This document shows, in pieces, positions 231-11,163 of a DNA stretch of 11,163 nucleotides. The DNA is from a virus. The translations under genes were made by a program, and so were the position numbers. The stretch is from UHGV virus genome UHGV-1347585. The stretch is one strand, 5' to 3'. Positions within the stretch are counted from its first letter, which is position 1. Each line of letters begins with the position of its first letter. The notes under the pieces were generated by a model, which was not told the DNA's origin, ran no database searches, and worked only from the letters and a program-made list of their open reading frames with translations.

Positions 231-532
231 GAAAAAAATTTTTTTTCGGAAGAACTGTTCACACTGTTCACCTTTCTGTTTTTTCCTTTTATTTCAGTTG
301 GATAGGTGGTGAATAATGGGTGAAGGGTGAACATTCGATTCTTCACCTCCGGCATTCTGCCGGTGTGACTTGTGCAGGGGATTAATCCTCCGCACTGAAA
401 TCACACCGGAAGAAAAAAGTTTTTTTTGATTTGATTGTTCACACTGTTCACCTTTCGTTTTTCTCTTTTAATTTCAGTGTGATAACGGGTGAACATACGG
501 TGAAGGGTGAACAGTGGATTGTTCACCTTCGG
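231..532. repeat. crr-like cis replication region: two ~120-bp direct repeats carrying TGTTCACC-type iterons
   Basis: Units at about 231..352 and 409..532 are near-identical with a 180-bp period (tgttcacactgttcacctttc at 256..276 and 436..456). Each holds several GGTGAACA/TGTTCACC octamers in both orientations. The position just downstream of alpha matches P4 crr. Confidence 0.8.
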
Positions 533-544
533 GGGATTCAGGGA

Positions 545-570
545 TAAAAAAAGACCGGCAGATGCCGGTC
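545..570 (-). terminator. Rho-independent terminator downstream of alpha
   Basis: Inverted repeat gaccggc/gccggtc (553..559 and 564..570) with a 4-nt loop. On the minus strand it is followed by a run of U (plus-strand A run at 545..552). It lies 17 bp past the alpha stop codon. Confidence 0.65.
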
Positions 571-586
571 AGATGAGTCATGAGGG

Positions 587-2920
587 TCAGACTGTTGCAG
601 GGTCGTCACATTTTGGCAGCCAGTCGCCGTAGCTTTCCTCTTTCAGCGTCAGGTTGGTCTGTATCCCCTGTTTGGTATGGCGCTTCTCGTAATTCAGTCC
701 GTATTCCTTCAGCATCACCGGCAGCCCCAGCCCGAACATTTTCAGACTGAGTACGTTCCGGTAGCCGTTTGCCTCCATGTAGGCCAGATAGGCGTGATAG
801 AGGTATTTACGGTAATTACGCGGGATGATACTGGCGTTCCCCATATACATGCCGCTGGTCTGCGGCAGGGTTTCCAGATAGCCGATAAAATCAAACGTCG
901 GGTCGGCATCCCGTTTGATGTTCAGCGCCTCGTCTGAGTTCTGCTGGGACTGAAGCAGTGACCGGGCGAGCATCGGGTCGCTGAACTTCTGCATCAGGTG
1001 ACGCACGATGACCGCCAGCTCGCGGGTGATTTTGTCCTTAAGCTGCGGGTCGCGCTCCTGCGGGGCTATCTGTTCCGGGAAGTGAATAATCACCCGCCGG
1101 CGTGACACGCCGCCGCTGCGGTCGGTGAAGCGCATCGGGTTATTGTTCACGGCCAGAATCACCGCCGGGATGTGCGTGGAGTACGCATCCCGGTATTTCG
1201 GGTCAACGGACACCGCATCGCCGCCGGTGATGGCCTTGAGTCCGGCTCCGTCGCCGCTCCATTTTTCCTGGTCCGGCAGGCGTATCAGTGAGAAGCCAGT
1301 TAACGCGGCACGTTCACGCGGGGATTCCAGCGTCTCAATGGTGGCCGATGTGGCGTTATCCTCCCCGGCCAGCAGGGTGGCTATTTCGGCCATGATACTT
1401 TTGCCGCTGCCGCCGGGACCGGTCACCTCCAGAAAGAGCTGCCAGTCGTAGCGGTTTGCCAGCACCATAAACAGTGCGGCCAGAATCACGTCGCGTTTTT
1501 CCGCACGGCCACCGGCGGCACGGTCAAGCCAGCGCCAGAACGCGGGGGCGTGGGTTTCCAGCGTTTCCCCTTCCACCGGCGGGGTGAAATCCACATCGCA
1601 CAGGGTGCGCATCCAGTGTGACGGACTGTGCGGGTGGAACGTGCCGTTCTGCGTGTCGAGCACGCCGTTACGAAAGCCAATCAGGCGGCGGGAGGGGGCT
1701 TCCTGCTGCGGAATAATCAGCTTCAGGGTGTCCACCACGGAGGCCACCTTCCCGGAGGAGAACGGCGCGCGCAGACGCTGAAACAGCCCGGCCACATCCC
1801 GGGCAAAGTCCTGTGGCGGCAGCACCTTCCAGACACCATTTTCATAGCGGGACAGAAGCTGGCCGTTGGCATCGACCGCGAGCGCCTCGCCGTAATGCTC
1901 ATAGATACGCATGGCCTTTTCGCTGGTACTCATGGCGGAAAACTCCGCTTCGCTCATGGTGTCGAACGGGCTTTCAGCCGGTGGCCGGATGGCATCATAA
2001 ATGGCCTTACGGGTGGCTTCCCCGCCGTACTGCGTGAAGGCATCATTCCAGTCACCGAAGACCGGCGGCAGGGCAACAACACCTTCACACGCATCTGCGG
2101 CTGCGGCGGCTTTTTTCTGGCCGTCACCGCTGAGGTCACGGTCAGCAGCAAGGACAATCTGACAGGCCGGATGCTTCTGCCGGGCAAGGCTGGCCAGAGA
2201 AAGGAGGTTCACGGAAGAAAGCGCCACCATCACCGTTTCACCGGTCAGGTGATGTACGGTAAGTGCGGTCGCGTATCCCTCCGCTATCCACAGACGTTTT
2301 CCGGCCTGATTCTGTCCTTCAAGGATGTGACAGGTGCCCCTGACCTGTCCGCCTTTCAGGGTGCGCTTACGGCCGTCAGCACTGATTAACTGAAGGTTAA
2401 CCAGTTCGCCGCTGTCGTCATACAGTGGCACCACAAGGTCACCGGCACGCCAGCTCACGCCACCGGCTCTGTGTGTGCCGGTCAGCATCCGGCATTCCCG
2501 GCCGGGAAAGCCCTTGCGGGTCAGGTAGGCGTTACCGGTTCCGGGACGGGTTTTCGCCATCAGGGTTTGTGCCAGTGCGGCGGCGTTCTTCCGGGCGGCT
2601 TCTGTTTCAGCACCGGCGGCGGCCGTCACTGCCGGGTCAGCCGGGGGCAGGCAGCCGGTCACGGCAGCCACCTTTGCGGCCGCGTCGGACGGGGAAACAC
2701 CAAACACCTTTTCAACCAGTTTCAGGCCGTCACCGGCACCACACTGATTGCAGTACCAGGTGCCGCGCCCCTCCCTGTCATCAAAACGGAAGCGGTCACT
2801 TCCGCCACAGACCGGACAGGGCTGATGACGGTTTTTCAGCACCTGAATCCCCAGCGCCGGGAGAATACGCGGCCAGTGGCCGAGCGCATGGCTGACGGTG
2901 GCGGTTACGTTCATTTTCAT
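587..2920 (-). CDS. alpha: P4 alpha-type bifunctional primase-helicase (zinc-finger primase, TOPRIM, SF3-type helicase)
   Basis: 777-aa ORF, the length I recall for P4 alpha. N-terminal CPVCGG...YCNQCG zinc-binding motif, TOPRIM-like WIAEGYATA, Walker A GPGGSGKS. AAGGAG Shine-Dalgarno 9 nt upstream of the ATG at 2920. Iteron regions (crr, ori) are present in cis. Confidence 0.93.
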   Translation of the reverse strand: MKMNVTATVSHALGHWPRILPALGIQVLKNRHQPCPVCGGSDRFRFDDREGRGTWYCNQCGAGDGLKLVEKVFGVSPSDAAAKVAAVTGCLPPADPAVTAAAGAETEAARKNAAALAQTLMAKTRPGTGNAYLTRKGFPGRECRMLTGTHRAGGVSWRAGDLVVPLYDDSGELVNLQLISADGRKRTLKGGQVRGTCHILEGQNQAGKRLWIAEGYATALTVHHLTGETVMVALSSVNLLSLASLARQKHPACQIVLAADRDLSGDGQKKAAAAADACEGVVALPPVFGDWNDAFTQYGGEATRKAIYDAIRPPAESPFDTMSEAEFSAMSTSEKAMRIYEHYGEALAVDANGQLLSRYENGVWKVLPPQDFARDVAGLFQRLRAPFSSGKVASVVDTLKLIIPQQEAPSRRLIGFRNGVLDTQNGTFHPHSPSHWMRTLCDVDFTPPVEGETLETHAPAFWRWLDRAAGGRAEKRDVILAALFMVLANRYDWQLFLEVTGPGGSGKSIMAEIATLLAGEDNATSATIETLESPRERAALTGFSLIRLPDQEKWSGDGAGLKAITGGDAVSVDPKYRDAYSTHIPAVILAVNNNPMRFTDRSGGVSRRRVIIHFPEQIAPQERDPQLKDKITRELAVIVRHLMQKFSDPMLARSLLQSQQNSDEALNIKRDADPTFDFIGYLETLPQTSGMYMGNASIIPRNYRKYLYHAYLAYMEANGYRNVLSLKMFGLGLPVMLKEYGLNYEKRHTKQGIQTNLTLKEESYGDWLPKCDDPATV

Positions 2921-2934
2921 GGTGTTGTTCTCCT

Positions 2935-3255
2935 TCAGTGCAGTACCGGCGCTTTTATGTGACGGGCACAGAGTTCATCCATCACAACCAGCCCGAGAAA
3001 GGACAGCGACGGCGCGGCCTTCAGGGGGCCGGATTCCATTAAATCTTCCAGCAGGGCACAGGCTATCTGACGCCCTTTTTCCTCACCGTGCTGGCGCAGA
3101 TAAAAGCCCTCCAGCTCAGCGGCGATGGCCGCCTCCAGTGATTCAAGGGTGAGATGCGGGTAGCGGTGCTGACGTTCGCACACGGTCAGCCAGGCACAGG
3201 CGACAGCGCGACGGTAAAGGGCTGCGCGTAAGACGGGCGGTAAGGGTGTTTTCAT
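2935..3255 (-). CDS. Hypothetical protein, 106 aa, in the P4 left operon between orf151 and alpha
   Basis: ORF with a GGAGG Shine-Dalgarno 7 nt upstream of the ATG at 3255. Sits immediately upstream of alpha in the same orientation. No recognisable motif. Confidence 0.6.
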
Positions 3256-3390
3256 TTGCTTTCCTCCCTGTGACAGATGACTGCATTCCGTGCCGGTTGC
3301 ATTAACTGATAAGGCATATCTGCGTCTCCTGAAGACGTGCGTATCCCTGCGCGAATACGCACATTTAATTTTTCGGGTGTCGTTTTTTAA

Positions 3391-3846
3391 TTACAGATAA
3401 TTGCGGTAACTGTTATCCGGGGTGGTTTCCGGGTCAGGCTCCGTGCGGGGAATTTCCCGCCATTCCCGCGCCACCGGTGCCGCCCGGCTGACCGGAACAG
3501 GGTCCTGCGGGTAAATATCCAGATATTTCTCCCGCCATTTCTGTAATTCCGGGTCTCCGGCCATTTCTTTCAGTACCGCATGCCGGTTTACGGGGCTGCG
3601 TTTGAACAGGTCAGGACGGTCACAGGTAAATTCCCGCAGAAAACGCCCCAGCGGGATGTCTGTGGTGCGCCCGTCGGCGAGGATACGCACAAGGATACTG
3701 AATTTACGGCGGTACGGGTTCCAGACAATTTCCGGGCAGCGGTACGGCATTTCCCACGGAATACCGTCTTCCAGAATGCCGACCACGGCCACATCGGGAA
3801 AACCGGCAGAACGGTAAATCTCACCGGGCTGGGGAAAATCAAACAT
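3391..3846 (-). CDS. P4 orf151-like protein of unknown function
   Basis: 151-aa ORF at the position of P4 orf151 in the left operon. Its ATG overlaps the stop of the upstream ORF (ATGTTTGA), suggesting translational coupling. Confidence 0.7.
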   Translation of the reverse strand: MFDFPQPGEIYRSAGFPDVAVVGILEDGIPWEMPYRCPEIVWNPYRRKFSILVRILADGRTTDIPLGRFLREFTCDRPDLFKRSPVNRHAVLKEMAGDPELQKWREKYLDIYPQDPVPVSRAAPVAREWREIPRTEPDPETTPDNSYRNYL

Positions 3847-4126
3847 GCGTCCTGTCTCCCCGGTCTTTCTGCTGGGCGAGAAAATCGCGGCACAGGCCTT
3901 TGGCTTTCAGCTCATTCAGCACAAAATCAATATCTTCATTCAGGTAGCTGAAAATATGCGGAATATAGAGCTGATGCAGGCCGGAGAGTTCACGGTGAAT
4001 CAAATCACCCCCAACAAACTGGGATACGGCGCTGGCGCGGTTGAGCTTATGGTAAGCCTCAATGCTGAGGTGTTCACGGGCGTCATGACGCGCTGAGACG
4101 GTCTGAGGGGCTTTTTTATTACGCAC
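3839..4126 (-). CDS. Small protein, 95 aa, at the position of P4 epsilon (helper derepression); GTG start
   Basis: The in-frame part of the 177-aa ORF has no internal ATG, but a GTG at 4126 sits 6 nt after a GGAGG Shine-Dalgarno (4133..4137). The 95-aa product is immediately upstream of and coupled to orf151. The epsilon assignment is by position only. Confidence 0.5.
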
Positions 4127-4316
4127 GGGACACCTCCACAACCGGCAGACGGGCAGCAAGGGAGAGCACATAGTCACGGACAAGGGAACGGCGGGCGCTG
4201 CGTTCATCACCGGCGACGGTGCGAAGCATACAGATACGGGGATGACGGTCTGCGCGACGGACAGCCGCAAACACAAAGACAAATTCAGGGTGTGAGGGGG
4301 TAAGGGTTGTAGCCAT
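4119..4316 (-). CDS. Small hypothetical protein, 65 aa, immunity-region ORF with RBS embedded in the seqC-like element
   Basis: ATG at 4316 preceded by a strong AAGGAGG Shine-Dalgarno (4325..4331) with 8-nt spacing. It is the C-terminal portion of the 199-aa track ORF. Function unknown. Confidence 0.45.
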
Positions 4317-4373
4317 GATGGCAGCCTCCTTGAAGTAACAGTTACAGCTACCACTAGAGTTCCTACGCTCATG

Positions 4374-4452
4374 GGTGGTAGCCCGGACGGGGGTAGGAAT
4401 ACCGGCCTTCAAGGAAACCGGCCAGCCCGAAGGCTGCCCCGCCCGGACCACC
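4374..4452 (-). ncRNA. Candidate P4 CI-like immunity RNA containing the seqB-like element
   Basis: Minus-strand transcript with 5' GGUGGU and 3' ACCACC able to form a closing stem. Contains a cagcc-UUCG-ggctg tetraloop hairpin and a seqB-like segment (plus 4393..4414) complementary to the repeated elements at 4328..4368 (seqC-like) and 4548..4576 (seqA-like). Boundaries are approximate. Confidence 0.4.
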
Positions 4453-4604
4453 ATTATCTGACAGAGGCTACGGTTTAAAAACCACAGCCAGAAAAACAGG
4501 TGTGCCGAAGCAACGACGTAAAAAAAGACGCATGGCGCGTCATATGTCGCCTTGAAGTAACTCGGGTTCCTACGCCCGGCTGCCGATTTTGCGGCAGCGG
4601 AAAA

Positions 4605-4634
4605 ACTATATCCGCAAATGCCGGAAAAAGGCAA
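4605..4634 (-). promoter_or_regulatory. Candidate sigma70 promoter (P_LE-like) driving the immunity/left operon
   Basis: Minus-strand TTGCCT (4634..4629), 18-nt spacer, TATAGT (4610..4605). Located between vis and the seqA-like element. Confidence 0.45.
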
Positions 4635-4669
4635 GCCAGAAAAAGGGAGTTTTTGCAGAGCGGGCATCA

Positions 4670-4936
4670 TCATGCGTCGTACCCCCGTTTGCGTACGGCA
4701 ATGCGCCCGGCCATCCATGCGGTGACTTCAGAGTGCAGCCAGGCCACATTTTTACCGCCAAGACTCACCTGCGGCGGAAATTCCCCCTTACGGATAAGTT
4801 CATAGATGGTCGAGCGTGACAGGCCGCACAGGTGCATCACTTCCGGCAGACGTAAAAAACGCTCCTGCGTGATGTCCGGCAGCGGCATCAGTGGCGTCAC
4901 AGGGGCGGGAGACGGGGAAGAAAAAACAGCTTGCAT
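4670..4936 (-). CDS. vis: AlpA/Vis-family small DNA-binding regulator/excisionase
   Basis: 88-aa ORF with an AlpA-type helix-turn-helix core (FLRLPEV...[17 protein letters not shown]...W). GAGG Shine-Dalgarno 7 nt upstream of the ATG. Position downstream of the leftward late promoter matches P4 vis (orf88). Confidence 0.75.
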
Positions 4937-5058
4937 CGGGCTACCTCGTTAATGTCCATACAGCACCGGATAAGTCCGTCCGGCTTCGGGTAGCGCTTTA
5001 TTTTGTGAATATTTTTGGCAGACGCAACAGGGGGAATTTGTTCCGGCAACCTTACAAT

Positions 5059-5076
5059 GGCTGTGTGTTTTTTATC
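5059..5076. promoter_or_regulatory. TGT-N12-ACA dyad: Delta/Ogr activator box of the leftward late promoter (PLL-like)
   Basis: tgttccggcaaccttaca is an exact TGT-N12-ACA element about 120 bp upstream of the vis start (which is on the minus strand). Confidence 0.55.
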
Positions 5077-5099
5077 CATCCGGACTGGAAGGGTCTCAA

Positions 5100-5320
5100 A
5101 GGGTTCTGAAGGACCTGGAATTTTTTATAGTGAAATGCAAATTATTTTTTCTTATTTATTTCAGTTAATTAATAAAAATAAACAGTAATAAACAGCATAA
5201 AAAGCCCATCAACGGGTGAACAGTGGTGAACAGACGGTGAACAGTCATTACTGCGATTGTTCACCCTTTAACTTACTGTATTACTTATCTTTTTTATTAA
5301 GGTGAACAGAGGTGAACAGT
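5100..5320. repeat. ori-like region: AT-rich tract followed by a cluster of GGTGAACA iterons
   Basis: 5100..5210 is strongly AT-rich. 5214..5320 holds five direct GGTGAACAG copies (three tandem, then two) plus an inverted TGTTCACC. The same octamer occurs in the crr-like repeats about 4.7 kb away. Confidence 0.75.
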
Positions 5321-5398
5321 AAAATATAAAAAAAACAAACAGTAAGCCGGTTTTTCCTGCGACCTTTTCCTGGCTTGCCGGTCTGAGGATGAGTCTCC

Positions 5399-5416
5399 TG
5401 TGTCAGGGCTGGCACA
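5399..5416. promoter_or_regulatory. TGT-N12-ACA dyad: Delta/Ogr activator box of the sid promoter (Psid-like)
   Basis: tgtgtcagggctggcaca is an exact TGT-N12-ACA element about 80 bp upstream of the sid ATG, with a weak -10-like cacaat at 5451..5456. Confidence 0.6.
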
Positions 5417-5488
5417 TCTGCAATGCGTCGTGTTGTTGTCCGGTGTACGTCACAATTTTCTTAACCTGAAGTGACGAGGAGCCGGAAA

Positions 5489-6223
5489 ATGTCTGACAAC
5501 ACCATCCCTGAATATCTGCAACCCGCGCTGGCACAACTGGAAAAGGCCAGAGCCGCCCATCTTGAGAACGCCCGCCTGATGGATGAGACCGTCACGGCCA
5601 TTGAACGGGCAGAGCAGGAAAAAAATGCGCTGGCGCAGGCCGACGGAAACGACGCTGACGACTGGCGCACGGCCTTTCGTGCAGCCGGTGGTGTCCTGAG
5701 CGACGAGCTGAAACAGCGCCACATTGAGCGCGTGGCACGCCGGGAGCTGGTACAGGAATATGACAATCTGGCCGTGGTGCTGAATTTCGAACGTGAACGC
5801 CTGAAAGGGACGTGTGACAGCACGGCCACCGCCTACCGGAAGGCACATCATCACCTGCTGAGTCTGTATGCAGAGCATGAGCTGGAACACGCCCTGAATG
5901 AAACCTGTGAGGCGCTTGTCCGGGCAATGCATCTGAGCATCCTGGTACAGGAAAATCCGCTCGCCAACACCACCGGCCATCAGGGCTACGTCGCGCCGGA
6001 AAAGGCTGTCATGCAGCAGGTGAAATCATCGCTGGAACAGAAAATAAAACAGATGCAAATCAGCCTCACCGGCGAGCCGGTTATCCGGCTGACCGGACTG
6101 TCAGCGGCAACACTCCCGCACATGGATTATGAGGTGGCAGGCACACCGGCACAGCGCAAGGTGTGGCAGGACAAAATAGACCAGCAGGGAGCAGAGCTTA
6201 AGGCCAGAGGACTGCTGTCATGA
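5489..6223 (+). CDS. sid: Sid-like external scaffold / capsid size determination protein
   Basis: The track ORF starts at an upstream GTG (5471). The ATG at 5489 has a GAGGAG Shine-Dalgarno 7 nt upstream and gives 244 aa, the length I recall for P4 Sid. First gene of a sid-delta-psu operon; its stop overlaps the delta start (ATGA). Confidence 0.8.
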   Translation: MSDNTIPEYLQPALAQLEKARAAHLENARLMDETVTAIERAEQEKNALAQADGNDADDWRTAFRAAGGVLSDELKQRHIERVARRELVQEYDNLAVVLNFERERLKGTCDSTATAYRKAHHHLLSLYAEHELEHALNETCEALVRAMHLSILVQENPLANTTGHQGYVAPEKAVMQQVKSSLEQKIKQMQISLTGEPVIRLTGLSAATLPHMDYEVAGTPAQRKVWQDKIDQQGAELKARGLLS

Positions 6224-6720
6224 TTTACTGCCCGTCGTGTGGACATGTTGCTCACACCCGTCGCGCACATTTCATGGACGATGGCACCAAGATAATGATT
6301 GCACAGTGCCGGAATATTTATTGCTCTGCGACATTTGAAGCGAGTGAAAGCTTTTTCTCTGACTGTAAAGATTCAGGAATGGAATACATTTCAGGCAAAC
6401 AGAGATACCGCGATTCACTGACGTCAGCCTCCGGCAGTATGAAACGCCAGAAAAGAATGCTTGTTACCGGATATTGTTGTCGGAGATGTAAAGGCCTTGC
6501 ACTGTCAAGAACATCGCGGCGTCTGTCTCAGGAAGTCACCGAGCGTTTTTATGTGTGCACGGATCCGGGCTGTGGTCTGGTGTTTAAAACGCTTCAGACC
6601 ATCAACCGCTTCATTGTCCGCCCGGTCACGCCGGACGAACTGGCAGAAAGCCTGCATGAAAAACAGGAACTGCCGCCAGTACGGTTAAAAACACAATCAT
6701 ATTCGCTGCGTCTGGAATGA
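6220..6720 (+). CDS. delta: Delta-like late transcription activator: tandem Ogr-type zinc-finger domains
   Basis: 166 aa. The N-terminus MIYCPSCGHVAHTRR...CRNIYCSATF is a clear Ogr-family C4 zinc-finger signature. A second copy of the motif (YCCRRCKG...CTDPGCGLVF) matches the duplicated-Ogr architecture of P4 Delta. Confidence 0.9.
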   Translation: MIYCPSCGHVAHTRRAHFMDDGTKIMIAQCRNIYCSATFEASESFFSDCKDSGMEYISGKQRYRDSLTSASGSMKRQKRMLVTGYCCRRCKGLALSRTSRRLSQEVTERFYVCTDPGCGLVFKTLQTINRFIVRPVTPDELAESLHEKQELPPVRLKTQSYSLRLE

Positions 6721-6793
6721 GGGCTGCCGGTTAACCCCGGCCGTCGCCGCACACCGTATTTTTATTCTTCAGCATGATGAGAAAGAGATAACG

Positions 6794-7366
6794 ATGGAAA
6801 GCACAGCCTTACAGCAGGCCTTTGACACCTGTCAGAATAACAAAGCAGCATGGCTGCAACGCAAAAATGAGCTGGCAGCGGCCGAACAGGAATATCTGCG
6901 GCTTCTGTCAGGAGAAGGCAGAAACGTCAGCCGCCTGGACGAATTACGCAATATTATCGAAGTCAGAAAATGGCAGGTGAATCAGGCCGCCGGTCGTTAT
7001 ATTCGTTCGCATGAAGCCGTTCAGCACATCAGCATCCGCGACCGGCTGAATGATTTTATGCAGCAGCACGGCACAGCACTGGCGGCGGCACTGGCACCGG
7101 AGCTGATGGGCTACAGTGAGCTGACGGCCATTGCCCGAAACTGTGCCATACAGCGTGCCACAGATGCCCTGCGTGAAGCCCTTCTGTCCTGGCTTGCGAA
7201 GGGGGAAAAAATTAATTATTCCGCACAGGATAGCGACATTTTAACGACCATCGGATTCAGGCCTGACGCGGCTTCGATGGATGACAGCCGTGAAAAATTC
7301 ACCCCTGCGCAGAACATGATTTTTTCGCGTAAAAGTGCGCAACTGGCATCACATCAGTCTGTGTAA
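6794..7366 (+). CDS. psu: Psu-like polarity suppression / capsid decoration protein
   Basis: 190-aa ORF, the length I recall for P4 Psu, directly downstream of delta and followed by a terminator. Assignment is by length and synteny. Confidence 0.75.
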   Translation: MESTALQQAFDTCQNNKAAWLQRKNELAAAEQEYLRLLSGEGRNVSRLDELRNIIEVRKWQVNQAAGRYIRSHEAVQHISIRDRLNDFMQQHGTALAAALAPELMGYSELTAIARNCAIQRATDALREALLSWLAKGEKINYSAQDSDILTTIGFRPDAASMDDSREKFTPAQNMIFSRKSAQLASHQSV

Positions 7367-7402
7367 AACTCCCCGAAAATCCGCCCGTTTTTACTGAAAA
7401 AA

Positions 7403-7430
7403 GCCATGCATCGATAAGGTGCATGGCTTT
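7403..7430 (+). terminator. Rho-independent terminator ending the sid-delta-psu operon
   Basis: Stem gccatgca/tgcatggc (7403..7410 and 7420..7427) with a 9-nt loop, followed by ttt and a further T-rich stretch. Confidence 0.6.
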
Positions 7431-7603
7431 GCATGCGTTTTCCTGCCTCATTTTCTGCAAACCGCGCCATTCCCGGCGCGGCCTGAGCGTGTCAGTGAAA
7501 CTGCATTAAAACCGCCCCGCAAAGCGGGCGGGCGTGGCGGGGAGAGCATTGCGCGCAAGCTGGGTAATTTTAGTTTCGTACATTTCTTGGTGGCAGGTAT
7601 ACT

Positions 7604-9718
7604 TTGACCGCATTTGCCGGGCAACATGTATATTGTATGAAGGATTTTAAAGATATAGTGTTTGCATTAGAAATGAATAAACCAGATGAGCAGATATCAG
7701 CATTAATTGCAAAAAAGGACATTACCATGCAGATAATAAGTGGCGAAACTAATATAAATGATGTTGGCATAAAAAAGAGATTTAAAAATTGCGAGCCATT
7801 TCAGTGTATTGTTGAGTTAGCATGGAATGGATTTGATGCCAAAGCTCGGAATGTCACTATTGAGGTGCGTAGAACTGATTTAGGCGGCCTGTCATCGGTT
7901 TATATTCTTGATGATGGTGATGGTATAGATTTTAATCACTTTGATTTGAACTTTAATAGATTTGATGATTCACTAAAAAAAGATAATATTGAATTACATG
8001 GCTCACAAGGAAGAGGAAGGCTTGCATTTCATAAGCTCAGCCGTCAAGCTATATGGTTTACTAAATATAACGATATAAATGCTAAAATAGAAATTGATGA
8101 TGCTGATCTTAAAAATTATCAAGCTTATATTAATATTCCGTATCAAGAGCAGCATTCAACATTAATCGGACAAAAAAGTGGCACATGTGTCATGTTGAAT
8201 CATTTTCATAATGATTTACCAAGTGATAATGAAATAATAAAAAGATTACAGAGTGAGTTTTGCTGTCACTTAGCACTGAACGAGCAGATAACGTTATCTT
8301 ATAATGGGGTTGTTATAACGGCACCAGAACATGATTCTCACTCATTAGAAAAAGAATTTGATGGAAGTTCATTTTCAATCAAGGCTCTCCGATGGGATGA
8401 AAAACCCTCTAAAGAAAGATCGTATGTATATTTGGTAAATTCGCAGGGTAAAAAAGTCCACGAAGTTCCAAGTAAATTTAATCAGAAAAAAGATTTCTAC
8501 CTTTCTATATTTGTCAGTTCTGACTGGGCTGATAACTTTAGTAATAAAGGCGATGATATATTTTCAGATGCTAAGTATAATGCTGACTCAAAAGTTTGGA
8601 AAGATGTCATAAAATTTGTTTGGGGATTATCAAAAAAGATATATGATGATTTCCTTCAAAAGAAAATCGACGAAACTTTAGAGCGTTATCAACAAGAGGG
8701 AGTATTCCCTTCTTATAGCGAATATTCAGATCCTAAATATGCTGAGTGGCGCTTGAATAATATCAAGGCTATCGTTCGTGATATATATATAGCCGAGCCA
8801 GCCATGCTCGATAATTTGAATACAAAACAAAGAAAGGTTTTTGTAAGGCTATTGGATAAACTATCTTCATCAAATAATAATGAGGATTTATTTAATATAC
8901 TTGAAAGCGTTTTAGATTTGAGTAAAGAGGGTTTGTCAAAACTTTCTAATCAATTAAGAATTACAAAACTTGATAATATAATTAGCGCGATTGAAGAACT
9001 ACAAAAAAGAAGGCTTGTAGTGGACAAGCTTCGTTATTTAATGGATCATCATTATAAGGAAATAAGAGAGACTCCAGATCTTCAAAAAATAATTGAAAAC
9101 AACACATGGTTGTTCGGTGAACGCTATGAAACTATCGGGGCTGAGGAAGATACTTTTACCAAAATAGCATTAGAATTAAGGAATAGTGTTAAACATATCA
9201 ACGATATTGATGAAGATGATGTTGAGAATGAGGCAGAATTAGCTGGTTCAAAACGGCAGACAGATCTATTTTTAGCCAGAAAGTACCCAGCCCTTGATTC
9301 CAATGGTAACCCATATTACAAATGCATTATCATTGAGATAAAAAGACCAAGTATTTCATTAAATATAAAACATCTAAGACAGCTTGATGATTATGCGGCA
9401 ATAATTCAAAGACATCCGGGGTTTAGTAGTCAAAATTTGCATTTTGAGCTCATACTCATAGGTCGTAAAATATCTAAAGATAGTTTCGAAATAGAAAGTA
9501 GATTGAATTCACATATACAAAAAGGTGATATGGGATTAGTTGGGGATGATCCTAGGATGAAGCGCTACGTTAAAAACTGGTATACCATTTTTGATGGTTT
9601 CGAACTCACTAATAGATTTATGCTTGATAAATTGAAATTAGAAAGAGATAGCTTAGAACTTGGTGAAATATGTTCGAAAGAAATTGTTTCAGAATTACAA
9701 GGTAACTTAAGTAAATAA
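7604..9718 (+). CDS. Cargo protein: N-terminal GHKL/Bergerat-fold ATPase fused to a C-terminal PD-(D/E)xK-like nuclease motif; candidate single-gene anti-phage defence protein
   Basis: 704-aa ORF from a TTG; internal ATGs at 7637, 7673 and 7727, the last with an AAGGA Shine-Dalgarno, are plausible true starts. N-box ELAWNGFDA, G1 box DDGDGI and G2 box GSQGRG occur in canonical order and spacing. The C-terminus has TDLF...IIEIKR (D...ExK). The gene is visibly AT-rich (roughly one third GC by eye) against a GC-richer backbone and occupies the psu-int slot. Confidence 0.85.
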   Translation: MTAFAGQHVYCMKDFKDIVFALEMNKPDEQISALIAKKDITMQIISGETNINDVGIKKRFKNCEPFQCIVELAWNGFDAKARNVTIEVRRTDLGGLSSVYILDDGDGIDFNHFDLNFNRFDDSLKKDNIELHGSQGRGRLAFHKLSRQAIWFTKYNDINAKIEIDDADLKNYQAYINIPYQEQHSTLIGQKSGTCVMLNHFHNDLPSDNEIIKRLQSEFCCHLALNEQITLSYNGVVITAPEHDSHSLEKEFDGSSFSIKALRWDEKPSKERSYVYLVNSQGKKVHEVPSKFNQKKDFYLSIFVSSDWADNFSNKGDDIFSDAKYNADSKVWKDVIKFVWGLSKKIYDDFLQKKIDETLERYQQEGVFPSYSEYSDPKYAEWRLNNIKAIVRDIYIAEPAMLDNLNTKQRKVFVRLLDKLSSSNNNEDLFNILESVLDLSKEGLSKLSNQLRITKLDNIISAIEELQKRRLVVDKLRYLMDHHYKEIRETPDLQKIIENNTWLFGERYETIGAEEDTFTKIALELRNSVKHINDIDEDDVENEAELAGSKRQTDLFLARKYPALDSNGNPYYKCIIIEIKRPSISLNIKHLRQLDDYAAIIQRHPGFSSQNLHFELILIGRKISKDSFEIESRLNSHIQKGDMGLVGDDPRMKRYVKNWYTIFDGFELTNRFMLDKLKLERDSLELGEICSKEIVSELQGNLSK

Positions 9719-9769: not shown

Positions 9770-10948
9770 TTATATTATGGCTGTTGTTAATAGGAAATCA
9801 CTATACCATTGCAACATTATTTTTCGATTTTCAATATATTGTGCATGATTGTATGTTCCACGAATGCTGTTCTTATCTACATGTGCAAGCTGCATCTCAA
9901 TCCACGCACTTTCAAATCCTTGTTCATGTAAGATCGTTGACATTGTGTGTCTGAATCCGTGACCTGTCGCACGTCCTTTGTAGCCCAGTAATTCAATTAC
10001 CTGCGACACACTTTCTTTAGAGATCGGTTTACTACGATTATTTCTACCAATAAAAATGTAGGGATAATGGCCGGTAATAGGTTTGAGCTGCTTAAATAGC
10101 TCAACTACCTGAGTAGATAAAGGAACAATGTGAGGCCTACGCATTTTCATCCGTTCTGCTGGTATTTCCCATATACTTTTCTCAAGGTCAACCTCATCCC
10201 ATGTAGCAAAGCGCATCTCTTGGGTTCGTACACCGGTCAGCATGACGATTTTTGTCGCATTCTTAGTGATAATGCTGCCGGTATACGCTTCAAGATCCCG
10301 AATAAAATGAGGTAACTCTTCAGCGGATAAAAATGGATGATGCTTTTGCTTCGGAACGGCCAAAGCAATAGCCAAATCAGGAGCAGGATTGTATTCTGCG
10401 CGGCCAGTTATAATTGCATAGCGATAGACCTCGCCGCATCTTTGGCGCACTTTTCTGGTCTTCTCTAGCGCTCCACGCTTCTCTATTCGCCGCAATACTT
10501 CAAGCAGTTCTAACGGTTTGATTTCACTGATAGGGCGTTTACCAATGAACGGGAACACATCTTGTTCAAATGTCTTAATGATTTCTTCGCGATAGGCCAC
10601 TGTCCAGCGGTCAGCTTTGTTGGTGTGCCATTCTCGACATATGGCTTCGAATGAATTCTCTGTTGAGAGTTGCTGTGCCAGCTTTTGGGCTTTACGTTCT
10701 TCTACTGGGTCTATGCCGTTTGCTACCTGCTTACGAGCTGTATCGCGTTTCTCACGTGCTTCTGCGAGGCTCACAAGGTCGTAGCTGCCAAATGACATTA
10801 GCCGTGCTTTACCGGCAAAACGAAAGCGGAAGCGCCAGCCCTTTGAGCCGTCTGGATTGATGAGTAATGACAGGCCTTGTCCATCGTTCAATGTGTAGGG
10901 CTTGTCTTGGGGCTTTGCTCGTTTAATTTGAATGTCTGTGAGTGGCAT
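9770..10948 (-). CDS. int: P4-family tyrosine integrase (site-specific recombinase), selC-specific
   Basis: 392 aa. N-terminus with the P4-integrase-like arm-binding signature (KPYTLNDGQGLSLLINPDGSKGWRFRFRF). C-terminal catalytic motifs HGFRHT and RGTYNHAQY contain the tyrosine nucleophile. Lies next to the selC 3' end in the same orientation. Confidence 0.95.
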   Translation of the reverse strand: MPLTDIQIKRAKPQDKPYTLNDGQGLSLLINPDGSKGWRFRFRFAGKARLMSFGSYDLVSLAEAREKRDTARKQVANGIDPVEERKAQKLAQQLSTENSFEAICREWHTNKADRWTVAYREEIIKTFEQDVFPFIGKRPISEIKPLELLEVLRRIEKRGALEKTRKVRQRCGEVYRYAIITGRAEYNPAPDLAIALAVPKQKHHPFLSAEELPHFIRDLEAYTGSIITKNATKIVMLTGVRTQEMRFATWDEVDLEKSIWEIPAERMKMRRPHIVPLSTQVVELFKQLKPITGHYPYIFIGRNNRSKPISKESVSQVIELLGYKGRATGHGFRHTMSTILHEQGFESAWIEMQLAHVDKNSIRGTYNHAQYIENRKIMLQWYSDFLLTTAII

Positions 10949-11100
10949 ATGTATAAGTCAAAAATATGTATAAAAGATCTATACACATCACTATACATAT
11001 TTTTCACGGATTCAGGGAGAACTTGTCGGACGGTTACGGATGAGTGATTTACTATGTATACTGAAAATAAAGGATTTTTAGACGTTCTCGGATAGCGGCG

Positions 11101-11130
11101 GAGGAATTTTGGCGGAAGATCACAGGAGTC
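11101..11130. repeat. Proximal att direct repeat overlapping the 3' end of selC
   Basis: gaggaattttggcggaagatcacaggagtc matches 73..102 with one mismatch. It covers the last 21 nt of the tRNA and 9 nt downstream of its CCA end. Confidence 0.85.
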
Positions 11131-11163
11131 GAACCTGCCCGGGACCGCTGGCGGCCCCAACTG
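11110..11163 (-). tRNA. selC: tRNA-Sec (selC), 3' portion only; 5' part lies beyond the window edge
   Basis: The reverse complement of 11110..11163 reads CAGTTGGGGCCGCCAGCGGTCCCGGGCAGGTTCGACTCCTGTGATCTTCCGCCA. That is the T-arm (GGTTCGACTCC), long acceptor stem and CCA end of enterobacterial tRNA-Sec as I recall it. Confidence 0.85.

Follow-up and report, generated by a model that had tools for sequence, protein, structure and literature searches.

A P4-type antisense RNA locus, very probably an immunity switch with a specificity of its own, in a satellite prophage of Escherichia coli

Introduction

Is the stretch between orf88 and epsilon of a P4-like element a protein-coding region, as its RefSeq annotation has it, or does it encode an antisense RNA together with the targets of this RNA? 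The question is raised by a DNA of 11,163 nt (UHGV virus genome UHGV-1347585; this entire stretch is referred to as the window, and all positions are counted from its first nucleotide). A reading made from the letters alone, here called the sequence-only reading, had proposed a P4-style RNA immunity locus at 4326..4576, consisting of two near-identical elements on the minus strand, a complementary segment between them and a structured, presumably processed RNA around this segment. Matches to three Rfam models (C4, isrK and c4-a1b1), a P4-like left operon and covariation in 97 loci bear out this proposal. We regard it as very probable that the locus is an RNA-based immunity switch, i.e. one that maintains lysogeny, of a P4-like satellite prophage, and that its specificity is unlike that of P4. 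Four features go beyond the earlier proposal: boxes that differ from those of P4, a t1-like terminator directly after seqA, a seqC element located on the kil ribosome-binding site, and the position of the whole locus within the eta reading frame. The system as such is already known; the locus is one instance of it, with its own specificity and a shorter spacer.

The element, its host and its gene content

Judged by its sequence matches, the window is a P4-like satellite prophage residing at selC in E. coli. DNA alignment of P4 (X51522 / NC_001609) with window positions 233..7530 gave 97.4% identity, and according to the P4 annotation this region corresponds to crr, alpha, ORF106, ORF151, epsilon, the old 'cI' CDS, ORF88, ori, sid, delta and psu. 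Open reading frames of 777, 106, 151, 88, 166 and 190 aa are equal in length to those of P4, and the one over sid comprises 250 aa versus 244 aa in P4. Pfam domains detected in the window include the primase-helicase, the 'Derepression' family of epsilon, the AlpA-type ORF88 and a tyrosine integrase. The P4 core genes are complete and of full length (alpha with 777 aa, epsilon with 95 aa, sid, delta, psu and int). A search of a phage collection with the window returned P4 records only.

A 511-nt stretch at the locus is 100% identical in E. coli WP2-W18-ESBL-10, where the element adjoins tRNA-Sec (selC) and is found between yicJ and setC. This stretch was matched at some level in 1,798 of 5,426 complete E. 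coli genomes, and no fewer than 110 complete E. coli genome records contain the locus with an identity of 99% or above.

As in the left operon of P4, epsilon and the alpha primase follow downstream of the locus, and sid-delta-psu is oriented divergently. On the minus strand the locus is preceded by orf88 (4670..4936), which encodes an AlpA-family HTH protein (Pfam Phage_AlpA, 74.3 bits) and occupies the place that ORF88 has in P4; the eta start codons ATGATGATG overlap with its stop codon. The genes expected to be under control of the immunity switch span 587..4126, likewise on the minus strand. They comprise epsilon (3839..4126; ORF list, P4 annotation and Pfam Derepression), orf151 (3391..3846) and orf106 (2935..3255), both identified by the ORF list and the P4 annotation, and the alpha primase-helicase (587..2920; Pfam primase/D5 domains).

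The integrase gene (9770..11163, 392 aa) is without a DNA match to P4 int, and the final ~60 nt of the window (11102..11163) match chromosomal DNA of Salmonella and E. coli. In the matching RefSeq record, tRNA-Sec (selC) is located 162 nt past the int start, so that the window probably ends within the attachment site, in the 3' part of selC. ARAGORN reported no tRNA in the 11,163 nt because the tRNA gene is truncated at the window end; the attachment site is therefore taken from the matching RefSeq record. Between psu and int, in a known P4 defence hotspot, a 704-aa ORF (7604..9718, plus strand) stands in place of the gop-beta-cII cargo of P4. Its N-terminus carries a GHKL-type ATPase domain (HATPase_c_3, 57.6 bits, aa 66-194), aa 427-509 show a weak likeness to the Shedu nuclease domain (PADLOC SduA/DUF4263, E = 0.0016), and a search for sequence relatives in the PDB returned none. 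This ORF may represent an uncharacterised anti-phage gene.

A C4-type antisense RNA

The Rfam model of the C4 antisense RNA (RF01695) matched 4371..4458 on the minus strand with 86.1 bits (gathering score 45, E = 2.5e-16), and the match covers model positions 1-87 of 87. The same segment is predicted to fold with -53.3 kcal/mol (z = -5.0), a stability reached by none of 200 shuffled sequences. Both the covariance-model search and the folding, which had been suggested as checks on the original proposal, thus turned out in its favour. On the basis of the Rfam match, the fold and the covariation described below, the mature CI RNA of ~79 nt is predicted to comprise 4374..4452 on the minus strand; its ends at 4452 and 4374 are taken over from P4 and would have to be read as such.

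The closing stem of the structure measures 17 bp. It encloses a hairpin capped by UUCG and a second one that carries the b' box in its loop, with the a' box lying in a single-stranded joint. A GGUGGU/ACCACC stem and a UUCG tetraloop hairpin had already been pointed out within 4374..4452, and both are present, the former as part of the closing stem (GGUGGU at 4452..4447, ACCACC at 4379..4374). In 97 related loci the closing stem is 99.9% paired and includes 5 compensated pairs; the inner hairpins are fixed by the 27-nt core that was used for searching and carry no covariation information. A conserved CCACC near the CI 3' end is compatible with processing by RNase P, and CI RNA is listed among the substrates of this enzyme (PMC5499578).

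The segment of CI that recognizes its targets, seqB, is located at 4393..4415 on the minus strand, as delimited by repeats, a composite motif and covariation. It harbours the b' box (U)CCUUGAAG at 4415..4407 and the a' box UUCCUAC at 4399..4393. In the minimum-energy structure of the window allele, the second hairpin is lengthened by three pairs into the b' loop, which could reduce the accessibility of b' in this particular allele. Two of these three pairs are kept in only 35-56% of loci, in agreement with the open 12-nt loop of the Rfam model.

The leader: promoter, seqA and terminator

A promoter scan predicted a PLE-like constitutive promoter at 4605..4634 on the minus strand, with the -35 element TTGCCT (4634..4629), an 18-nt spacer and the -10 element TATAGT (4610..4605). 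The promoter stretch shows no difference from P4 (alignment A1). Transcription would start near G4598, and 4598 is also the position at which the isrK model starts. The leader RNA (4521..4598, minus strand) is a homologue of IsrK/seqA: the isrK model (RF01394) matched 4521..4598 over its full length with 73.4 bits (gathering score 50), and the c4-a1b1 model (RF03163) matched 4559..4611 with 49.6 bits (gathering score 46.7), both on the minus strand.

The leader folds into hairpin I (4598..4579) and hairpin II (4578..4562), the latter presenting the a-box GUAGGAA in its loop, followed by the single-stranded b-box and then the terminator t1. Its helices are 94.6% paired in the 97 loci, with compensatory change at 8 pairs. 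The upstream target seqA (4550..4575, minus strand), defined by the repeats, the composite motif and covariation with seqB, contains the a-box at 4573..4567 and the b-box CUUCAAGG at 4557..4550. A t1-like intrinsic terminator was found by a terminator scan at 4520..4541 and corresponds to the terminator hairpin of the isrK model; it is formed by the hairpin GACGCG-CCA-UGCGUC (4541..4527, minus strand) and a subsequent stretch of U7, and its stem shows a GC-to-CG swap in 43 of 97 loci. We take 4541..4520 to be the counterpart of P4 t1. A seqA element and an intrinsic terminator downstream of a predicted constitutive promoter are thus arranged here as in P4.

The minimum-energy structure of the leader forms t1 even without CI, so that a boost of t1 termination by pairing at seqA is not accounted for by the folds. 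An antiterminator formed by the b-box region and the 5' arm of t1, to be dissolved by CI, was considered and rejected, as the full-leader minimum-energy structure forms t1 anyway. In a truncated nascent leader, folding revealed weak GGCG/CGCC pairing.

The spacer between t1 and the CI RNA (4459..4520, minus strand) has a length of 62 nt in the window and in most relatives, versus 107 nt in P4 (8508..8614); the 45 nt by which they differ leave the eta frame intact. Spacer lengths of 68 or 80 nt, found in other relatives, likewise deviate by multiples of three. Some variants have an a' box shortened by 1 nt, and these also lack 2 nt just past the RNA, by which the eta frame is restored.

Complementarity and covariation at three sites

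The two near-identical minus-strand elements of the sequence-only reading were recovered as direct repeats of 16 nt (4353-4368/4560-4575, 88% identity, spacing 207 nt) and 12 nt (4328-4339/4550-4561, 100% identity, spacing 222 nt). Inverted repeats tie both target copies to 4388-4415, that is, to seqB, which lies between them as the complementary segment. The limits of the direct repeats place seqA at 4550..4575; the earlier estimate of 4548..4576 was hence 1-2 nt too wide at each end, and those for seqC (4328..4368) and seqB (4393..4414) were exact.

In the window the two-box motif GUAGGAA...CUUCAAGG singles out three sites: it is present in seqA and seqC and, in complementary form, in seqB. 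When formulated as GTAGGAA-N(4-30)-CTTCAAGG, it matched the 11,163 nt exactly three times, with seqA and seqC on the minus strand and the seqB complement on the plus strand; 200 shuffles that preserved dinucleotides gave a mean of 0.00 and a maximum of 0. The a' and b' boxes match both targets perfectly over 7 nt and 8-9 nt, respectively. Duplexes are predicted to form with -33.7 kcal/mol for seqB:seqA and with -29.4 kcal/mol for seqB:seqC; shuffled seqB sequences gave means of -16.4 (seqA) and -16.0 kcal/mol (seqC) with a standard deviation of 3.1, and none of 1000 was as good. The proposed complementarity is therefore far better than expected by chance.

For comparison we collected nine divergent E. 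coli variants and 120 species-representative loci with the exact 27-nt RNA core. Usable loci amounted to 125, and alignment A2, extending from the leader to the kil ATG, comprises 97 distinct sequences; owing to the selection by an exact core, this sample leans to close relatives. A perfect complement of at least 7 nt to a locus's own a' box is present upstream in all 125 loci and downstream in 123 of them, and for the own b' box the corresponding numbers are 112 and 117. With the boxes of foreign loci, the complement averages just 4-5 nt.

In the 97 sequences, seqA:seqB involves 15 pairs, with 99.6% of the cells paired and 13 pairs changed on both sides, and seqC:seqB involves 16 pairs, with 97.4% of the cells paired and 14 pairs changed on both sides. 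The covariation scores were 0.798 versus 0.215 (seqA:seqB) and 0.722 versus 0.204 (seqC:seqB) for real and shuffled alignments, the shuffling being a control that ignores phylogeny. When the partners were slid against each other, only 37-51% (seqA:seqB) and 37-48% (seqC:seqB) remained paired. In view of this slid-partner control and the many independent pair types, the conclusion of pairing in trans is safe. Such covariation throughout the family documents trans RNA-RNA pairing with unusual clarity, and it could guide the choice of orthogonal antisense repressor/target pairs.

Among the 125 loci we counted 11 a' alleles and 43 b' alleles in 57 combinations, with the a and b boxes assorting independently; the combination of the window, UUCCUAC + CCUUGAAG, occurs 4 times in the sample. 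We see an even chance that P4-type immunity works with a modular RNA address code of two boxes, in which many specificities exist naturally and each change is mirrored at three sites within an open frame. The principle is already established for P1/P7, and for P4/phiR73 as well, so that any novelty would lie in the scale and the combinatorial assortment. If the types are mutually orthogonal, nature would have provided a large set of RNA repressors that do not cross-react, and with it a record of how satellites exclude one another.

The exact 27-nt CI core was also encountered outside the Enterobacterales, namely in Ralstonia and Cupriavidus (L015, L028, L053 and L079), Aeromonas (L029) and Motiliproteus (L020). 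Further matches came from assemblies labelled as Firmicutes (L047 and L073, Vagococcus; L054, L090 and L091, Clostridiales/Bacillota MAGs); they more likely represent contaminating enterobacterial contigs, as several are short and carry P4-type sequence. In two E. coli loci (L010, strain 1162C, and L011, strain THO-015) the gene directly upstream of the immunity locus is one annotated as 'P2 family phage major capsid protein' instead of an AlpA-type ORF88, which points to another satellite architecture with the same RNA switch.

seqC, kil and the eta frame

The downstream target seqC (4327..4368, minus strand; repeats, composite motif and covariation with seqB) contains the a-box GUAGGAA at 4366..4360 and the b-box CUUCAAGGA at 4335..4327. 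The latter overlaps the Shine-Dalgarno sequence AAGGAGG (4331..4325) of kil. This gene (4119..4316, minus strand; ATG at 4316..4314) encodes an Icd-like cell-division inhibitor of 65 aa and is the first gene translated from PLE transcripts. The Kil protein is 100% identical to P4 Kil, it was assigned to NCBIfam phage_ICD_like with 73.6 bits, and RefSeq has it as Icd-like protein. At the DNA level, 4119..4331 is 98.6% identical to P4, and from this identity we presume that the P4 terminators t4 and timm, located downstream of seqC, are conserved here.

All of these elements are nested in the eta reading frame (4119..4673, minus strand; 184 aa), which starts with ATGATGATG, passes in frame through PLE, seqA, t1, the CI RNA and seqC, and ends as kil. 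The P4-type arrangement, with seqC over the translation initiation region of kil and within eta, is thus found here. The homologous P4 frame from the same ATGs comprises 199 aa, and the eta gene reportedly has 197-199 aa. A 199-aa ORF starting at 4718 was also considered as eta; 4718 is probably not a real start, and ATGATGATG at 4673 fits P4 as well as the PGAP calls in relatives. Kil has been described as a truncated Eta that is translated on read-through (PMC10111431).

Could the region, then, be mainly protein-coding, as an 'Ash' or long Icd-like protein in the eta frame, with the repeats being incidental? The 184-aa ORF covers the whole locus, Pfam Phage_ASH matches its aa 22-131 with 118 bits, and the NCBIfam Icd-like model matches aa 131-178. 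Of 96 loci, 82 keep the eta frame open throughout the RNA locus (12 and 5 do so for the other two frames), and in 83 of 95 the stretch from the leader to the kil ATG has a length of 2 modulo 3, with indels keeping the frame. RefSeq, moreover, holds only coding features at the locus, an 'ash family protein' pseudogene and the Icd-like CDS, and the RNA gene is without annotation. However, a coding constraint leaves unexplained the three-way compensatory changes at sites 130-220 nt apart, and likewise the compensated pairs in the RNA and terminator stems and the matches to three structural models of Rfam. Coding constraint cannot give rise to covariation in trans, and we therefore reject a protein-only reading as the exclusive explanation and consider it highly improbable. 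It is only as an exclusive explanation that coding fails, since translation of eta is part of the known mechanism. The Phage_ASH family is in effect a translation of the RNA locus, i.e. of the RNA, its targets and the terminator. For annotation this means that the region should be described as a regulatory RNA locus, for which RefSeq currently labels proteins only.

Proposed mechanism

For the immunity switch that we favour, the course of events can be outlined by analogy with P4 genetics. The constitutive promoter PLE (4634..4605) would drive leftward transcription, and the leader would expose seqA, with the a-box in a hairpin loop and the b-box single-stranded, directly followed by t1. After read-through past t1, the ~79-nt segment 4452..4374 would be cut out as the stable CI RNA, presumably with participation of RNase P, which is involved in this step in P4. 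The b' box in the hairpin loop and the a' box in the joint of CI would then pair in trans with seqA of new transcripts; this pairing is expected to enhance termination at t1 and would thereby make CI autoregulatory. By pairing with seqC, the same boxes would cover the Shine-Dalgarno sequence of kil. With kil untranslated, transcription would end before epsilon, orf151, orf106 and alpha, such that the prophage would stay quiescent and repression would extend to a superinfecting satellite carrying the same boxes. Transcripts from an upstream late promoter, by contrast, would escape this repression because ribosomes translating eta would run through the entire region.

An alternative is that the leader acts mainly in trans, either as a decoy, with the PLE-to-t1 transcript titrating the CI RNA, or as a small RNA that opens the kil ribosome-binding site by binding to the long mRNA, an action known from IsrK on orf45-anrP in Gifsy-1. 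The leader matches the isrK model with its terminator included (73.4 bits, see above), and IsrK has a dual function as sRNA and mRNA, with the SeqA RNA of P4 being its structural homologue (Hershko-Shalev et al., PMC4825925). For P1 a1/b1, a competition (decoy) proposal was recounted by Weinberg et al. (PMC2864571), and IsrK-like elements of P4-like prophages were required in S. Typhi according to TraDIS (Barquist et al., PMC3632133). On the other hand, the seqA and seqC boxes are alike, so that the leader is not complementary to seqC or the ribosome-binding site, and an opening of this site in the manner of IsrK is not evident from the sequence. In P4, CI RNA reportedly enhanced termination at t1 in vitro in a seqA-dependent manner, which counts against a mainly trans-acting leader. 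A decoy role would add to the CI switch and not replace it, and as the main function of the leader we consider action in trans very unlikely. Least credible of all, in our view, is that the prophage is cryptic and the locus within it a decaying relic whose sequence persists without its regulatory function: many P4-like elements of E. coli are indeed defective, but here the P4 core genes are all intact and of full length, the three box sites match perfectly, the promoter stretch is the same as in P4, and the locus recurs with at least 99% identity in 110 or more E. coli genome records.

The current understanding of P4 immunity remains unchanged by these results. Knowing the box sequences would permit the prediction of which P4-like satellites exclude each other in a strain.

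Comparison with known systems

The closest known system is that of P4 itself, in which the order, spacing and structure of all immunity elements are the same as in the window. The Rfam C4 model scores 74.9 bits on the cI of P4 and isrK scores 60.8 bits on its seqA, both regions having been defined by experiment, and the eta frame of P4 starts with the same ATGATGATG. The a and b boxes, however, are not identical. The a-box pair is GUAGGAA/UUCCUAC in the window and GUGAGAA/UUCUCAC in P4, and the b-box pair is CUUCAAGG/CCUUGAAG in the window and UUCACAGG/CCUGUGAA in P4. In the pairwise alignment these box changes are compensated at seqA, seqB and seqC, and the flanks are nearly invariant; the closing stem of CI also shows compensated substitutions relative to P4. 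In addition, the integrase module (selC, 392 aa) and the psu-int cargo of the window are unlike those of P4.

With both boxes altered and the alterations compensated at three sites, the window element is predicted to be heteroimmune to P4. Duplex predictions gave -23.2 and -22.1 kcal/mol for the window seqB on the P4 targets, and -18.8 and -17.2 kcal/mol for the P4 seqB on the window targets. Such non-cognate duplexes are 6 to 19 kcal/mol weaker than the cognate ones, but are still predicted at -17 to -23 kcal/mol.

Heteroimmunity to P4 has been reported for the retronphage phiR73, a P4-like satellite, which reportedly has compensated differences from P4 in seqA, seqB and seqC. The tRNA-Sec gene (selC), at which the window element is located, is presumably also the phiR73 attachment site. 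Differing from phiR73, the window is without a retron, its cargo being the 704-aa GHKL-type ATPase gene.

In the literature, the IsrK and C4 homologues of P4-like prophages have been equated with seqA and the CI RNA of P4 (Barquist et al. 2013, PMC3632133), and the old annotation of a P4 'cI protein' has been replaced by the RNA (PMC3632133; PMC10111431). The IsrK sRNA of Salmonella Gifsy-1 (RF01394) shares its model with the window leader 4598..4521, including the two hairpins and the terminator. IsrK has been described as an sRNA that binds Hfq and switches on the translation of orf45-anrP from the long isoform (PMC4825925), whereas the IsrK-like element of the window lies in a P4 left operon upstream of the CI RNA, of which it is expected to be a target that enhances termination. 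The P4 SeqA RNA was recognized as a structural homologue of IsrK, and the mechanism summarised, by Hershko-Shalev et al. (PMC4825925).

The C4 antisense RNA of P1/P7 (RF01695), which acts on a1/b1 and a2/b2 and controls icd-ant, belongs to the same Rfam family and clan as the window RNA; the definition of the C4 and a1b1 motifs, like the a'/b' nomenclature, goes back to Weinberg et al. (PMC2864571). As in the window, a' and b' pair with targets upstream and downstream of the RNA gene, the downstream one being located at a ribosome-binding site, and the first downstream gene is Icd-like. P1/P7 are plasmid prophages with the antirepressor Ant, whereas the window is a satellite in which replication functions (epsilon and alpha) are under control, and in sequence it is much closer to P4 than to P1.
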